Source of the DNA: an uncultured Clostridia bacterium
Lineage (GTDB): Bacteria > Bacillota > Clostridia > TANB77 > CAG-508
NCBI GenBank assembly: GCA_947632605.1
Contig: CANRPX010000007.1
Span: 4,882 to 68,881 of the forward strand
Direction of reading: 5' to 3'
Length of the DNA: 64,000 nucleotides
Below, in pieces: positions 21,721-31,088 of this stretch (the first letter of the stretch is position 1; every line of letters starts with the position of its first letter). The notes under the pieces were generated by a model that was given only the letters and a program-made list of their open reading frames with translations, was not told the origin of the DNA and did not search any database. The position numbers and the translations under genes are program-made.

Positions 21721-24576
21721 ATGGAGGTAGTTATTTTGGTTGGGAAAAAAGGAAAAAAAGATGAAGAACTTATCGTGGATGTTGAAGATTTTGAAAATTT
21801 TGGTAAGCTAGCAGATGATGATGAATATAAAGAAGGAGAAGTAGAAGAACCAAAAAAAATAGATAAAAAAGATTTAGAAGAAGTACCTGAAGAAGATGAT
21901 GACGAAATAATAGATGACGAAGAGGCAGATGAATATGAAGAAGTCGATGATGACGAATTTGAAGAAGTAGGCGAAGACGACGAAATAGTAGATGATGAAG
22001 AAGCAGATGAGTATGAAGAAGTAGATGACGATGAATTCGAAGAAGTAGGCGAAGATGACAAAATAGTAGATGATGAAGAAGCAGATGAGTATGAAGAAGT
22101 AGATGACGATGAATTCGAAGAAGTAGGCGAAGACGATGAGATAGTAGATGATGAAGAAGCAGAAGAATATGAAGAAGTAGATGACGATGACGAATTCGAA
22201 GAAGTAGGCGAAGACGACGAAATAGTAGATGACGAAGAAGCAGATGAGTATGAAGAAGTGGATGATGACGACGAATTCGAAGAAGTAGGCGAAGATGATG
22301 AAATAGTAGATGACAAAGAAGCAGATGAGTTTGAAGAAGTCGATGATGAAGATGAAATTGTAGATGATGAAGAACCAGAAGAATTCGAGGAAGTCGATGA
22401 TGAAGATGAAGTTGTAGATGATGAAGAACCAGAAGAATTCGAGGAAGTCGATGATGATGATGAAGTTGTAGATGATGAAGAACCAGAAGAATTCGAAGAA
22501 GTAGATGACGAGGATGAAGTAGAAGAAGACGAAGAACCAGAAGAGTTCGAAGAAGTCGATGATGAAGATGAAGTTGTAGATGATGAAGAACCAGAAGAAT
22601 TCGAAGAAGTCGATGATGAAGATGAAGTTGTAGAAGAGGAAGAACCAGAAGAATTTGAAGAAGTCGATGAAGAAGATGAAGTTGTAGATGATGAAGAACC
22701 AGAAGAGTTCGAAGAAGTCGATGATGAAGATGAAGTTGTAGATGATGAAGAACCAGAAGAATTCGAAGAAGTCGATGAAGAAGATGAAGTTATAGACGAT
22801 GAAGAACCAGAAGAGTTCGAAGAAGTCGATGAAGAAGATGAAGTTGTAGAAGACGAAAAACCAGAAGAGTCTGAAGAAGTAGATACTGAAGAATCAGAAG
22901 AAAATGAGGAAGCAGACGAAGAAGTTAAGGATGAGGATGCAGAAGAAGAAACTGATGAAGATTCTGAATTTGAAGAATCAGATGAAGAAGATAACGAAGA
23001 AGATGATGACGAAGATGATGAAGACGAAGATGAAGATGATGAGGAAAGTATTTATCCAGATGAATTAGTTGACTTAGAATTAGAATGTATATATATTGGT
23101 CTTCTATTCAATAATCCTAAAGCTATTTCTAGATTTTACTTTTTATTTGAAGATTGTAAGTTTTCTGATAGTGAGTTGTATAATTTATATAGAATAATTA
23201 TATTTAGAGATGGTGAAGCATACGCTCCAGCAAGTGCTAAGGATAAATTCCAATTACCAAGAGAAAATCCAAGAACTTATGATTTAAAATACAAAGTTAG
23301 AAAAATGGCAATTGCAAAAAATTATGACTTAGAAAAAGTTTATACAGACTTAAAAAAATTATTTATATTAAAGAAGAATTATTTAATAGCTCCTACATCA
23401 GCAATACAACAACAAATTCTTGATATACAAAATTATGATTTGTATGATAGTATGACTGTTGAAGAAGTTGAGAGTGCATTAGAGCAAATTACTGTTACAA
23501 CTGGATTGAGTAGAGCAATATTAAATGAAAATGCAACAAGTTTCTTATTAGCAGATGACAATGAATTAAGCAATGGTATATCATTACCATTCCCAACTTT
23601 AACAACCGTGTTTAAAGGTATTAGAAAAGGAGAAACAATGACTTATGCAATGCCTTCAAACTCTGGTAAAAGTAGGTTTACAATTGAACTTGCTTGCTAT
23701 ATAGCATTTATTCATAAGAAAAAAGTATTAGTTATATCAAACGAAATGTCTCAAGAGAAAATGAGATTATGTATGATAACTACAATTTTAAATAATCCAG
23801 AAATTCAAAAACTTCACAAACAAAATATTCGCAAAACAGAGGGAGAATTACTAGAATTAAAATTTAGACCAGATGAAAACAAAAAAGTAAAATGTGATGA
23901 AGAAGGATTTATCTTAAGAAAAGATGGAGAAAATATAGAAGAGTTTGTTAAAAGACTAGAAAAAAATTCTAAAGAATTTAGACAAACAATTGCAGCAACT
24001 GAATGGCTAAATACACAACTAAATAACTCAATCTACTTTATTCACATAACAGAACATTCAAATGATGATTTAAAGAAAATTATAATGAATTATTATTATA
24101 AAGAAGCAATAGAATATATTTTCTACGATACTTTAAAAGCAGATACAGAAAATATTGGTAACGGAAACGAGATTAAGAAAACTGCAACAATACTTTCAAA
24201 TTTAGCACAGAAATTTAAAATGTGGATTGGTTCATCAATGCAATTATTGGAAAGTAGTACATTACCAGTAAATTTAACTATTAATGATATGTCTGCTAGC
24301 AAAACAGTAAAAGAAGTATTAGATACTTTATGTTTAATAAAACAAATAAGTAGACAATCTTTATATAAATATGAATATGCAGATACTGATCAATTTGAAA
24401 ATTGTCATGATATTGAAGTACCAAAAGATACAGATGTTAGATTTTATGCTTGTGTTGTAGATAAGAACAGAGCTGGTGCAAAACCAACATTGTTATTTAG
24501 ATTAAACTTAGCTTATAATGAATGGGAAGAAATGGGTCATTTAAGATTAAAACAGTCTGAAATAGAAGAAGATTAG
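21721..24576 (+). CDS. Poly-acidic tandem-repeat protein fused to a divergent DnaB-family helicase domain (alternative start TTG 21736)
   Basis: Residues about 60-440 are more than 70% D/E in tandem repeats. Residues about 440-950 show a DnaB-like N-domain pattern (ELECIYIGLLFNNPKAISRFYFLFED), a Walker A (AMPSNSGKSRFTIELACYIA), the SNEMS motif, a Walker B (IFYDTL) and a C-terminal VVDKNRAGAKPTLLFRL resembling DnaB IIAKQRNGPTG. Confidence 0.55.
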   Translation: MEVVILVGKKGKKDEELIVDVEDFENFGKLADDDEYKEGEVEEPKKIDKKDLEEVPEEDDDEIIDDEEADEYEEVDDDEFEEVGEDDEIVDDEEADEYEEVDDDEFEEVGEDDKIVDDEEADEYEEVDDDEFEEVGEDDEIVDDEEAEEYEEVDDDDEFEEVGEDDEIVDDEEADEYEEVDDDDEFEEVGEDDEIVDDKEADEFEEVDDEDEIVDDEEPEEFEEVDDEDEVVDDEEPEEFEEVDDDDEVVDDEEPEEFEEVDDEDEVEEDEEPEEFEEVDDEDEVVDDEEPEEFEEVDDEDEVVEEEEPEEFEEVDEEDEVVDDEEPEEFEEVDDEDEVVDDEEPEEFEEVDEEDEVIDDEEPEEFEEVDEEDEVVEDEKPEESEEVDTEESEENEEADEEVKDEDAEEETDEDSEFEESDEEDNEEDDDEDDEDEDEDDEESIYPDELVDLELECIYIGLLFNNPKAISRFYFLFEDCKFSDSELYNLYRIIIFRDGEAYAPASAKDKFQLPRENPRTYDLKYKVRKMAIAKNYDLEKVYTDLKKLFILKKNYLIAPTSAIQQQILDIQNYDLYDSMTVEEVESALEQITVTTGLSRAILNENATSFLLADDNELSNGISLPFPTLTTVFKGIRKGETMTYAMPSNSGKSRFTIELACYIAFIHKKKVLVISNEMSQEKMRLCMITTILNNPEIQKLHKQNIRKTEGELLELKFRPDENKKVKCDEEGFILRKDGENIEEFVKRLEKNSKEFRQTIAATEWLNTQLNNSIYFIHITEHSNDDLKKIIMNYYYKEAIEYIFYDTLKADTENIGNGNEIKKTATILSNLAQKFKMWIGSSMQLLESSTLPVNLTINDMSASKTVKEVLDTLCLIKQISRQSLYKYEYADTDQFENCHDIEVPKDTDVRFYACVVDKNRAGAKPTLLFRLNLAYNEWEEMGHLRLKQSEIEED
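21895..22870 (+). repeat. In-frame coding tandem repeat array: about 5 copies of a 78-nt unit, then about 11 copies of a 54-nt unit
   Basis: Direct reading of near-identical units (gaaatagtagatgatgaagaagcagatgagtatgaagaagtagatgacgatgaattcgaagaagtaggcgaagacgac, then gaagaaccagaagaattcgaggaagtcgatgatgaagatgaagttgtagatgat). Confidence 0.9.
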
Positions 24577-25427: not shown

Positions 25428-25664
25428 TTAAATATCAACTAAAATAATTTCATCTCCAATTACTCTAATTGAAGACCATGGAATTGTAATTTCATTTCCA
25501 GTAGAAAAAATATTGAAAAATTTATTATTTCCAGGAACTATAATATTTGTTATAGTTCCTGTTTCAAAATCAGCAGTAACATCTTGAACAAATCCAAGTT
25601 TTTTTGCATCTCTAATATTTATAACTTCTTTATGTTTAAAATCTAATCCTTTTTTATCATACAT
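25428..25664 (-). CDS. ylmC: YlmC/YmxH family sporulation protein (PRC-barrel)
   Basis: 78 aa, starting MYDKKGLDFKHKEVINIRDAKKLGFVQDV, which is the conserved YlmC/YmxH signature. It is convergent with sigG. Confidence 0.8.
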   Translation of the reverse strand: MYDKKGLDFKHKEVINIRDAKKLGFVQDVTADFETGTITNIIVPGNNKFFNIFSTGNEITIPWSSIRVIGDEIILVDI

Positions 25665-25782
25665 AAGTCTTTAATCTCCTTAAACTATATTTATGCTTAA
25701 AATTGATAAAAAATACTAAATATGATATAATTAAGAGAGGGAGTTTTTAAAACTTACCAAACAAAGAAAGAGGGTTACACAC

Positions 25783-26067
25783 ATGATCAAGCGAGCACTA
25801 GTCCGGACAGTTTCTACCATGATCGTCATCAGCATCACCGCGTTTGTGGGATACTTCGTCTGCAAGGGCATCGACATCGTTGTCTCTGCGTGTATGAAGT
25901 GGATCTCTATGGCGTGGAACGGAGTCAGAAATGACTACATGACACTCGTTATCCTCATCGCAATCCTGTTTATCGGTTCTCTGGTTTGGGAGTGCTTAAA
26001 GCCTCTGGTTCACAGAAAGATGGAAGAGCACCGCTGGAGAAAGCAAATGAAAACGGGAAAGAACTAA
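25783..26067 (+). CDS. Small two-TM membrane protein (94 aa) encoded on an island of about 50% GC. Foreign or recently acquired; function unknown.
   Basis: An RBS AGAGGG sits 8 nt before the ATG. Two hydrophobic helices are followed by a basic C-terminal tail (HRKMEEHRWRKQMKTGKN). A GC-rich hairpin follows. GC and codon usage differ sharply from the flanks. Confidence 0.5.
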   Translation: MIKRALVRTVSTMIVISITAFVGYFVCKGIDIVVSACMKWISMAWNGVRNDYMTLVILIAILFIGSLVWECLKPLVHRKMEEHRWRKQMKTGKN

Positions 26068-26078
26068 GTACCCCCGAG

Positions 26079-26107
26079 GAGCTGGCAAGCAATTGAGCCA
26101 GCTCTTT
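26079..26107 (+). terminator. GC-rich stem-loop after the island ORF (weak intrinsic terminator, short T-tract)
   Basis: GAGCTGGC-AAGCAATTGA-GCCAGCTC, a perfect 8-bp stem followed by TTT. Confidence 0.45.
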
Positions 26108-26173
26108 GGAATTTTTATGCATAATTTTTCTAAAAATGGAAAAGATATATAAAAATAATTTTTAGGAGATAAT

Positions 26174-26470
26174 ATGCAAACAAATAAAACTAATAATATT
26201 GTGTTTTTAAAAAACATTGAGTCTAATATTATTGAAGAAGCAATAGTAATTTTAAAGAAAAATATAAAATTACAAAATTTTGAAAATAAAGATATAAATA
26301 AAAATATTGATATATTAAAAGAAGCAGAATTAGTGGTAAATCAAAAAATAAGTTCTGAAAAAGAAGAATTTAGTAAATTTAGAATTAATAGATTAGAAAG
26401 AAAAATAAAAAAATTAAAAATACTTAATTTTATATTAATTTTTGGACTAATATTAGTTTTTATATTTTAA
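26174..26470 (+). CDS. Hypothetical coiled-coil protein with a C-terminal TM anchor
   Basis: 98-aa ORF preceded by an RBS AGGAG. The C-terminus ILNFILIFGLILVFIF is hydrophobic. Confidence 0.4.
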   Translation: MQTNKTNNIVFLKNIESNIIEEAIVILKKNIKLQNFENKDINKNIDILKEAELVVNQKISSEKEEFSKFRINRLERKIKKLKILNFILIFGLILVFIF

Positions 26471-29974: not shown

Positions 29975-30592
29975 TTATGCAGAAGAATAAGCAATATCTT
30001 TCTTAAAGTATATGTTGAAGAATGACATATAATTACCACAAGAACATTTAATAGGGTCATAACCAAAAGATAATTCAATGGATTCACGCCATTTAGAAAG
30101 TTTCTTACGAATATTAATAATAGATTGTTTAACACGTTTAATAAGTTTGTCATGATGAGGGGACTTTTTAGCATAAATACCATAATAACGAATCATTTTA
30201 AATTGTTCATCAGGAATATGAATAATAAGTTTTTGAATAAATTCAAAAACAGGAATAGATTCAATAATTTTTTTATTATCTTCATGACGTTGATACCAAA
30301 AAGTAACATAAGAACCATCGTAATTAATGATACGAGATTGAGCCATAGAAGGTCTAGAAATATAGCGAATAATATAATTAACAACGTCATAAGAAGAAGA
30401 TAAATTAGGTTTAGCATAAACATAAAAACCGTTGTTTGTGAGCGGAATAAAGGAAGTTCTTAAAAGAACGAAAAGAAGACTTGCCAAGGACTTTTTCAAT
30501 ATTGTAAAGTAAGGTAGTTTGCCATTTTTTACGAAGCATAATATAAGGAAAATGATAAAAAGGACGCCAAGGGATAGAAGTACCAGAAGCAC
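29975..30592 (-). pseudogene. IS91-family transposase, C-terminal fragment (Y2 catalytic region)
   Basis: 205-aa ORF with RYYGIY (Y-x3-Y) and a conserved C-terminal CSCG. It continues the upstream fragment after a frame change. Confidence 0.6.
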
Positions 30593-31088
30593 CTTCAGAA
30601 ATAAGCATATGAATATGAGGATTCCATTTTAAATCACGACCGAAAGTATGAAGAGCACAGATGATACCAGGTTTAAAGTTTTGAGATTTATTCAAAGAGG
30701 AAAACCAGTCAAGAATAGTTTGAGCAGCAGATTTAAAAAGAAGATGAAGAAGAGAGCGATTTTTACGGAATAAGAAACGTAATTCAGCAGGAATAGTAAA
30801 AACGATATGTCTATGTTTACAATTAATTAATTTAGAAGATAGAGAAAGAGCACGAGCCTTTTGATATTTAGAGCCACAAGAGTTGCAGAAACGAGATTTA
30901 CAAGAAAAAGGAACGCACTTAAATTTTCCACAATGTTCACAAATATAAAGAGCATGACCAAGATTAGGATTTTGACAATTAATCATTTTAAGAACTTCTT
31001 TATTAACAACAGGTCTAACATTAGGGAAAGAGGTAATAAAATCAGACCAATTATCAGCCATGATTTGTTTAATAGTAAATTTAGACAT
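30411..31088 (-). pseudogene. IS91-family transposase, N-terminal fragment (Zn-finger + HUH), interrupted by a frameshift
   Basis: 225-aa ORF. It overlaps the C-terminal fragment ORF (29975-30592) in another frame, and an A6 run lies in the overlap. Confidence 0.6.

Follow-up and report, generated by a model that had tools for sequence, protein, structure and literature searches.

Between the sporulation gene ylmC and the conserved gene orf98, the 64,000-nucleotide (nt) stretch of uncultured Clostridia DNA analyzed here (the window) contains a short segment whose GC content departs sharply from that of its surroundings and which appears to be a gene. The window is 25.8% GC overall. The GC-rich segment, or island, delimited at 25770–26109 by 30-nt running GC and a 100-nt profile and without a strand of its own, is about 49% GC. 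The 300-nt bin 25801–26100, at 49.3% GC, ranks first among all 300-nt bins of the window, and the island stands 4.1 standard deviations above the mean of 150-nt windows (.258, with a standard deviation of.057). Its edges are steep: on entering the island, GC climbs from.19 to roughly.50 over no more than 60 nt, and the drop to.18 on leaving it is equally sharp,.19 and.18 being the values of the immediate flanks in 100-nt windows. The segment coincides with a predicted transcribed body, from the Shine-Dalgarno site through the terminator stem. Read from the sequence, the island is the body of a resident monocistronic gene with a promoter, a 5′ untranslated region (UTR), a 94-codon open reading frame (ORF), and an intrinsic terminator.

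The predicted promoter (25703–25731, plus strand) is of the sigma-A type, with a −35 element TTGATA at 25703–25708, a 17-nt spacer, and an extended −10 element, TGATATAAT, at 25723–25731; it matches 11 of the 12 consensus positions and has the TG motif in addition. From the inferred transcription start, the predicted 5′ UTR would run for about 45 nt on the plus strand (25738–25782, 36% GC), and its stem-loop is weak (−4 kcal/mol), no better than shuffles. On the same strand, a Shine-Dalgarno site, GAAAGAGGG (25766–25774), stands 8 nt ahead of the ATG of the ORF (25783–26067, stop included), whose 94-amino acid (aa) product is MIKRALVRTVSTMIVISITAFVGYFVCKGIDIVVSACMKWISMAWNGVRNDYMTLVILIAILFIGSLVWECLKPLVHRKMEEHRWRKQMKTGKN. 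The ORF is supported by its codon periodicity and by homology to three of the related loci described below (L100, L103, and L104), and when the region was dinucleotide-shuffled 300 times, an ORF of this length arose only 5 times. GC at its first, second, and third codon positions (GC1, GC2, and GC3) is.41,.36, and.66. By comparison, the 48 window ORFs of at least 150 aa range from.06 to.20 in GC3, with a pooled value of.10, and the genes neighboring the island from.04 to.12. All 11 of its isoleucine codons are ATC, and 7 of its 8 lysine codons are AAG. The intrinsic terminator (26074–26118, plus strand) is composed of a 13-bp stem (26074–26086 with 26097–26109), a 10-nt loop, and then AATTTTTAT. 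A right boundary placed at TTTGGAA (26105) was considered and dropped, the conserved orf98 promoter at 26119–26147 marking the boundary instead.

Hydropathy places hydrophobic segments of the 94-aa protein at approximately residues 9–30 and 50–75; its N-terminus is basic and its C-terminal tail, which is polybasic, carries a net charge of +5. A single-sequence AlphaFold2 model has long helices at residues 3–47 and 51–91, with a predicted local distance difference test score of 74.5. The product is most likely a small integral membrane protein in the form of a helical hairpin whose two ends are cytoplasmic, the topology being suggested by the basic N-terminus and the polybasic tail under the positive-inside rule. 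Much of what the original prediction had read from the letters of the window is borne out by these results: an island of about 50% GC in flanks of about 25%, GC-ending codons, a ribosome-binding site of the gene's own, and a protein with two transmembrane (TM) helices and a basic tail. The GC-rich hairpin that it described is also present, although with a stem of 13 rather than 8 bp.

The sigG-ylmC setting named in the original prediction holds as well, both neighbors scoring above the cut-offs of their families. On the left, the PRC-barrel sporulation gene ylmC/ymxH (25428–25664, minus strand; TIGR02888 83.5 bits, cut-off 44.2; PF05239) is divergent from the island gene, and SigG itself scores 418 bits against an NF006071 cut-off of 372. 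On the right, orf98 (26174–26470, plus strand) encodes a conserved protein of 98 aa, with a TM segment at its C-terminus, and is the first gene of an operon with M23 and M50 protease-family genes. Outside the island gene, a sigma-F-like promoter of this operon lies at 26119–26147 (plus strand; GCATA-N14-GGAAAAGATA); we take it by reading to be a match to the sigma-F consensus, and it is conserved in relatives both with and without the island.

A family in the same slot of related Clostridia

Relatives of the island were sought in 80 loci collected via SigG, in ENA/Logan contigs reached through homologues of the M23 protein, and in a metagenome scan with the orf98 alignment. The three nearest species of the SigG collection (L006 to L008; SigG 91–93% identical) have gaps of 133–170 nt between ylmC and the next gene and no island of 50% GC. 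Nine further alleles, from at least eight lineages, were found in the identical slot between ylmC and the orf98-M23-M50 operon. The most GC-rich are those of L089 (102 aa, ORF GC.51, GC3.65), L094 (101 aa,.51,.70), L104 (96 aa,.48,.60), and L092 (102 aa,.47,.50); those of L103 (94 aa,.41,.47), L099 (97 aa,.41,.37), L009 (89 aa,.40,.40), L100 (109 aa,.37,.35), and L008 (83 aa,.34,.35) follow. Their hosts are 23–26% GC, and the genes next to them have a GC3 of.06–.18.

The architecture of the locus is shared throughout. A promoter of the form TTGAnn-17-TGnTATAAT occurs in 10 of 10 alleles at the same upstream distance, and all ten have a Shine-Dalgarno site and a GC-rich 3′ segment with a terminal T-run; the terminator hairpin was confirmed in every allele whose transcript was folded, and that of the window is homologous to that of L100 (GGCTGGCAAGACATTGCCAGCC followed by a T-run). 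Apart from these terminators, no Watson-Crick inverted repeats were found in the family ORFs. Each protein has a basic N-terminus, hydrophobic stretches at about residues 5–35 and 47–80, and a basic tail with a charge of +5 to +11, the exception being L009 at +1. Each ORF length was reached in just 0–10 of 300 dinucleotide shuffles, and GC3 is far above GC2 across the family. In pairwise BLASTP, the window allele matches L100 (E = 8e-9), L103 (2e-7), and L104 (9e-5), and other pairs link L104 with L103 (7e-7), L103 with L008 (2e-6), L008 with L094 (1e-3), and L089 with L092 (2e-14). Conserved stretches in the family alignment are too short for alignment-based locus scans. With its slot, its promoter, its length within the 83–109 aa architecture, its terminator, and a GC content above that of its host, the window allele has every feature of this ylmC-adjacent family of small membrane proteins. 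From these shared sequence features, the gene represents, at this locus, an unannotated and lineage-restricted family of uncultured gut Clostridia of about 24–26% GC, and we are confident both that the gene is real and that its family extends across the clade. The original prediction had named, as a finding that would refute it, orthologous loci in relatives with the same gene at ordinary host composition; orthologous loci were indeed found, but all of them are GC-enriched relative to their hosts.

The gene is absent from at least five lineages (L006, L007/L101, L086, L096, and L098). The promoter-proximal DNA is retained in L086, and what is missing extends exactly from the promoter spacer to the terminator T-run, which identifies the empty slot as a deletion with a clean scar. 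In a rough host tree built from YlmC and the M23 protein, presence of the gene is scattered from the outgroup inward, suggesting that it is ancestral to the clade and appears to have been lost repeatedly. The promoter type, a near-consensus extended −10 sigma-A promoter in all ten alleles, suggests production of the protein in vegetative cells. Forespore-timed expression, which the original prediction had read from the position beside sigG and ylmC, thus finds no support here, since the sigma-F-like promoter belongs to the next operon.

Several features of the wider clade were noted along the way. In more distant Clostridia (L010 to L085), ylmC is on the same strand as sigG; an inverted ylmC, transcribed divergently from the island, marks the clade with the island family. 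The linkage of sigG to ylmC is not universal in this clade, as a Glucos_trans_II family protein (L098 143–1726) rather than sigG lies upstream of ylmC in L098. In L096 (968–1742) and L099 (602–1376), sigG is called as two overlapping ORFs (101–107 and 162 aa), which reflects a frameshift or a sequencing error. The spacers between stop codon and terminator in L089 (2482–2520), L092 (2515–2552), and L100 (1947–1975) are C/A-rich and G-poor, as in ACAGAACTCAACTGCAGACAAGCACTACCGACC, which is unusual in these genomes.

A compositional break this sharp raises the question of an assembly chimera or a contaminant, which the original prediction had listed as an alternative and for which nothing but the break itself speaks. 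The island and both of its junctions, 541 nt in all, are identical in five independent ENA/Logan assemblies retrieved by exact look-up of the YlmC protein, which come from different samples and two pipelines. In three of the five contigs, about 0.4% of the flanking sites depart from the window sequence; the island is thus present in at least two strains (two haplotypes), and related species hold homologous islands with the same flanks. The chance that the locus is an artifact of this kind is practically nil. A selective sweep was considered from the lack of single-nucleotide polymorphisms (SNPs) in the island region (none in 905 nt, compared with about 0.4% in the flanks) and rejected, with p only about.02 and other SNP-free stretches present.

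The gene has also been nearly invisible to annotation. No gene is called in the island gap in any of the five assemblies, and the 94-aa protein is nowhere on record. Only two alleles of the family have ever been called as genes, P0126 and the gene of L100. A third is in the database as a 136-aa artifact, P0125 (L094 512–922, L095 558–968), in which TGA was read as tryptophan under genetic code 4; under code 11, the L094 ORF ends after 101 aa. The wrong genetic code was evidently used for gene calling in some assemblies of these low-GC Clostridia. As public assemblies have no call for the window ORF or for most of its family, which is also essentially absent from about 15 billion proteins, the locus illustrates how gene callers trained on composition can hide real genes in extremely AT-rich genomes.

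The 94-aa protein had no match in a word-indexed search of 5.8 billion clusters, and an exhaustive phmmer search of 1.84 billion representatives gave two matches only, both spurious (1,500-aa proteins with Ig repeats). The window protein gave nothing above noise in Pfam, PHROGs, and NCBIfam; a profile search of the PDB and a fold search of BFVD were empty; and scans of IMG/VR and of JGI metagenomes with it found no match. In phage and plasmid collections, the sole match by blastn and tblastn, in Lactococcus plasmids, was AT-rich and resembled a promoter. In sum, no homologue from outside the clade was found in the clustered proteins, the representatives, or the viral, phage, plasmid, and JGI collections. 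At the RNA level, no Rfam family reached its gathering score anywhere in the 64 kb, and the region 25600–26250 searched at E values up to 10 gave only noise (E = 3–6), so the island is not a known structured RNA, a possibility that the original prediction had left open. ARAGORN reported no transfer RNA (tRNA) or transfer-messenger RNA (tmRNA) in the window; that 64 kb should hold no tRNA, tmRNA, or Rfam family is an observation in its own right, given the nearby rpsF-ssb-rpsR genes and a dnaB-like gene.

Turnover of the alleles and probable maintenance of GC

The closest informative pair of alleles shows how quickly the gene changes. Between L089 and L094, synonymous divergence (dS) in the flanking genes is.04–.09 (.20 in orf143) and nonsynonymous divergence (dN) at most.012, and the 3′ UTR is at background divergence. 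In the island gene, codons 1–75 differ with a dS of.35 and a dN of.27, and codons 76–102 with a dS of.07 and a dN of.015. The changes fall on codon positions 1, 2, and 3 in numbers of 26, 11, and 18, and the sole indel is 3 nt long; fewest changes at the second position and an indel that preserves the frame are what is expected of a translated ORF constrained for hydrophobicity. Among the window, L089, and L092, the promoters and the DNA beyond the terminator align well and the transcribed bodies are essentially unalignable. To judge from these comparisons, the gene evolves very fast, nearly at the rate of unconstrained sequence, and keeps its architecture alone.

The GC content of such a gene would be expected to decay under the mutational regime of its host, in which a pooled GC3 of.10 corresponds to a roughly nine-fold bias from G/C to A/T. 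Silent divergence of sigG and ylmC is.24–.26 between L089 and L092 and.38–.44 between the window and L089, values that are underestimates at this composition. Under a two-state model of neutral decay, which assumes vertical descent, 50% of the GC3 excess would survive over the first of these distances and 33% over the second, so that the ancestral GC3 needed to explain the present alleles would be 1.2 and 1.8, respectively, both impossible. The GC content cannot, therefore, be the neutral relic of one old transfer; either G and C are favored at fixation at this locus, or alleles have been imported repeatedly and recently. The untranslated 3′ spacers have a GC of.41–.59, against.18–.19 in adjacent intergenic DNA, which shows that the excess is not confined to codons, and the GC-rich block matches the transcript body in every allele. 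The ORF of the window folds to −78 kcal/mol, compared with −36 to −64 kcal/mol for host segments of equal length. We consider it probable that the high GC is actively maintained rather than freshly imported.

How it would be maintained is a more speculative matter. A fixation bias toward G and C, acting on the whole transcribed segment including the 3′ spacer, would oppose the AT mutation pressure of the host, and this bias may be selection on a bulk property of the mRNA, such as thermodynamic stability or resistance to AU-directed decay. AT-biased mutations would then be offset by changes elsewhere in the transcript, resulting in fast turnover at silent and replacement sites alike. Selection of this kind predicts that GC is high in coding and noncoding parts alike, that it changes abruptly where transcription starts and at the terminator, and that no base pairs are conserved. 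That the maintaining force is selection on mRNA we put forward only tentatively, as one possibility that falls short of an even chance. The overall explanation that we lean toward, with slightly better than even confidence, is that of an old, resident, fast-evolving gene whose GC is kept high by fixation bias, with mRNA selection as the preferred source of the bias. In its boldest form, that a small transcription unit has long been held at 40–50% GC (with GC3 up to.70), reversing the genome-wide bias by selection on bulk mRNA or by an unusually strong fixation bias toward G and C while the protein drifts almost freely, the idea is open to more doubt than belief.

A number of observations weigh against this explanation. 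The window allele is no more structured than its shuffles (z = +0.6 to +1.1 for the ORF and −1.45 for the whole transcript; the minus strand has z = +0.05). The family mean of ORF-only z is −2.2, with extremes of +1.1 and −5.0, compared with −1.1 (standard deviation.85) in a host-gene control, a marginal difference driven by L100, L008, and L009, and the whole-transcript values of −3 to −6.7 probably owe much to the terminators. RNAalifold on L089, L094, and L092 returned a positive, that is unfavorable, covariation term, and the 5′ stem-loops of the family are weak. The family itself has a loose edge in L009, which joins it only via position, architecture, and a profile that it helped to build. 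The history of the alleles may not be simply vertical either: the window allele resembles those of L100, L103, and L104 (YlmC 76–82% identical) and not those of its nearest relatives L089 and L092 (YlmC 92–94%), for which allele exchange within the clade, an old polymorphism, and acceleration in one lineage are all possible explanations. If exchange or old polymorphism is the cause, the vertical decay model may not apply to the window/L089 pair. The high divergence between L089 and L094 ends abruptly at codon 75, like a recombination mosaic and not like uniform turnover, and this boundary favors some recombination. Finally, a very similar pattern would be expected from GC-biased gene conversion or from selection for rare codons.

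The first of these two would have a recombination hot spot, subject to GC-biased conversion and to diversifying or balancing selection with frequent allele swaps in the clade, produce the high GC as a by-product. The L089/L094 mosaic, with 26 changes per 100 nt over codons 1–75 and background thereafter, the mismatch between allele and host relatedness in the window, and the raised GC of untranslated 3′ spacers all fit such a process, which we nevertheless consider rather unlikely: the GC block of each allele is bounded by the transcription start and the terminator, which is unexpected of a recombination tract, there are no recombination machinery or repeats flanking the locus, and effects of conversion reported for bacterial GC3 amount to a few percent, not a rise from.10 to.66. 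Codon throttling, in which rare, slow G/C-ending codons would limit the yield of a potentially toxic, holin- or toxin-like membrane protein, or slow its elongation, despite a strong promoter and Shine-Dalgarno site, draws on GC3 being the most deviant codon position, on CGG making up 25% of the arginine codons of the family (0.00 in the host) and CTG plus CTC 39% of the leucine codons (0.00 in the host), and on the strength and conservation of the promoter and ribosome-binding site. The untranslated spacers, GC-rich as they are, do not fit it; moreover, ATC, TTC, GAC, TAC, and AAC share G34 tRNAs with their T-ending partners, so that slowness is not expected of them, and the tRNA set of the organism lies outside the 64-kb window. 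We regard throttling as improbable. Still more so is a structured or dual-function RNA, for which the transcript would be the product and the ORF secondary or incidental. GC-rich islands of AT-rich genomes are usually RNA genes, and the whole transcripts of L100, L008, L104, and L009 fold better than shuffles (z = −4.5 to −6.7), as do the ORFs alone in three alleles (z = −3.5 to −5). The whole-transcript signal is, however, probably in large part that of the terminator hairpins, the folds of the window allele and of L103 are unremarkable, covariation support and matches to Rfam, tRNA, or tmRNA are absent, and the codon periodicity, ORF length, and protein architecture common to ten alleles argue for translation.

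Import is the remaining way to account for the composition. The original prediction had proposed recent horizontal acquisition of a small cassette, and horizontally acquired islets do resemble the island in their sharp compositional break and host-foreign codon usage, the base and codon composition of the island being atypical for its host. The resemblance goes no further. The same site in at least eight other lineages, whose silent sites have turned over, holds positional homologues that share the promoter, the architecture, and the terminator and have a GC content that is no neutral relic; one of the relatives without the island, L086, is a deletion derivative rather than a witness to the state before an insertion; and we found no donor lineage, integrase, transposase, or target duplication, and among flanking repeats only a chance-level, AT-rich direct repeat (20/26). 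A single recent cassette is thus contradicted. In a broader version, alleles would be imported repeatedly or recently into the same slot from an unsampled pool of about 45–55% GC, the alleles at.34–.41 GC being older and decaying. Codons that the host hardly uses (CTG, CTC, CGG, CCC, GCC, and GCG) are common in the family, GC3 spreads from.35 to.70 between lineages, and the decay model rules out a single old import, not several recent ones. On the other side stand the lack of a homologue outside the clade in the collections searched, UTRs and terminators that are homologous across alleles of different GC (the window and L100; L089 and L092), a conserved and host-like promoter, the lack of mobility genes and target duplications, and a family that is strictly single-copy in one chromosomal slot. 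Repeated import is in our view quite unlikely.

Should maintenance of GC prove to be the correct reading, its interest would extend beyond this clade. Whether bacterial GC content reflects selection or biased conversion, against a mutation bias that is universally toward AT, is an old question, and a locus with GC3 40–60 points above its genome in several species is a test case for it. The maintenance reading would, if true, provide a natural example, accessible to experiment, of bacterial GC content itself being selected for (or driven by biased conversion), and would define a class of genes systematically missed by composition-trained finders. In a little-known clade of gut Clostridia, the family also adds a fast-evolving and probably vegetative small membrane protein to the neighborhood of the sporulation genes sigE/sigG-ylmC and M23/M50.

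Resemblance to known small membrane proteins

By analogy of shape, the protein resembles most closely the class II holins and other small proteins that perturb or regulate membranes. Class II holins (two TM helices, e.g., the S21 pinholin type) are like the island protein in size (83–109 aa in the family), in their two TM helices and charged basic C-tail, in having both termini in the cytoplasm, and in fast sequence evolution under a conserved architecture; hydropathy and charge give this layout in all ten alleles and AlphaFold2 agrees on the helices, the cytoplasmic placement of both ends being inferred for the island protein. Unlike the holins, the island gene has no endolysin partner, phage genes, or lysis cassette. 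It sits in a fixed chromosomal slot with its own sigma-A promoter and terminator, its neighbors are sigG, ylmC, orf98, M23, M50, and rpsF-ssb-rpsR in every species, and no phage or viral matches were found. In Pfam and PHROGs, the ten members gave a lone holin match, to Phage_holin_3_6, in one member at E =.065. Weak matches to the PHROGs "membrane protein" phrog_944 (L094 3.6e-5, L092 4.2e-4, L089.023) and one to the Pfam family EI24 (CysZ-like; 5e-4) are partial, against profiles of at least 235 residues; neither the window allele nor five of the others show them, and their likely cause is TM composition.

The type I toxins of Firmicutes (TxpA, BsrG, Fst, and the C. difficile CD-type) share with the island gene a small, hydrophobic, unannotated membrane peptide expressed from a strong promoter, an mRNA that is stable in absolute terms, and a patchy distribution with frequent loss and neglect by gene callers. 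These toxins are, however, shorter than about 60 aa with a single TM helix, and the island protein, at 83–109 aa, is two to three times longer with two hydrophobic segments; it is also single copy at one conserved locus, and its Shine-Dalgarno site is not obviously sequestered. In the ten alleles, a sigma-70 consensus scan that may miss weak promoters revealed no recurrent minus-strand promoter, within the ORF or immediately 3′ to it, that could drive an antisense antitoxin; a weak minus-strand site lies inside the orf98 coding sequence in some alleles. Of the holin- or toxin-like character in the original prediction, only the resemblance in shape stands.

A third comparison is suggested by the neighborhood. 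BofA, the two-TM inhibitor of the SpoIVFB site-2 protease, is likewise about 90 aa, and the island gene lies beside M23 and M50 site-2 protease genes that form a SpoIVFA/SpoIVFB-like pair. The BofA Pfam profile matched no family member at E values up to 1, and BofA has no polybasic tail, whereas the island protein has one. The island gene is furthermore a separate transcription unit with a vegetative-type promoter, and several relatives with the M23/M50 operon do without it.

Other features of the neighborhood

The element upstream of the operon recurs as GCATA-N14/15-GGAAAAnATA ahead of orf98-M23-M50 in L086, L089, L092, L096, and L098. Reading this orf98 promoter as forespore-type would make the M23 protein of the operon SpoIIQ-like rather than SpoIVFA-like; in NCBIfam, this protein has sub-threshold M23 matches only, including SpoIIQ at E = 1e-13. 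Between a sigE-like gene and sigG, the window encodes a 951-aa protein (21721–24576, plus strand) with an acidic D/E repeat N-terminus of about 420 residues and a C-terminal part that weakly matches DnaB-type helicases (TIGR00665, E = 4e-7, far below the cut-off). The repeat number varies by strain (the protein has 972 aa in L001), and most of the strain SNPs of the region fall in the repeats. Two ORFs on the minus strand, 29975–30592 and 30411–31088, have a slightly raised GC3 of.20. The former reads like a fragment of a transposase, which we take by eye to be of the IS91/Y2 type, and together the two suggest a mobile-element remnant just downstream of rpsF-ssb-rpsR.

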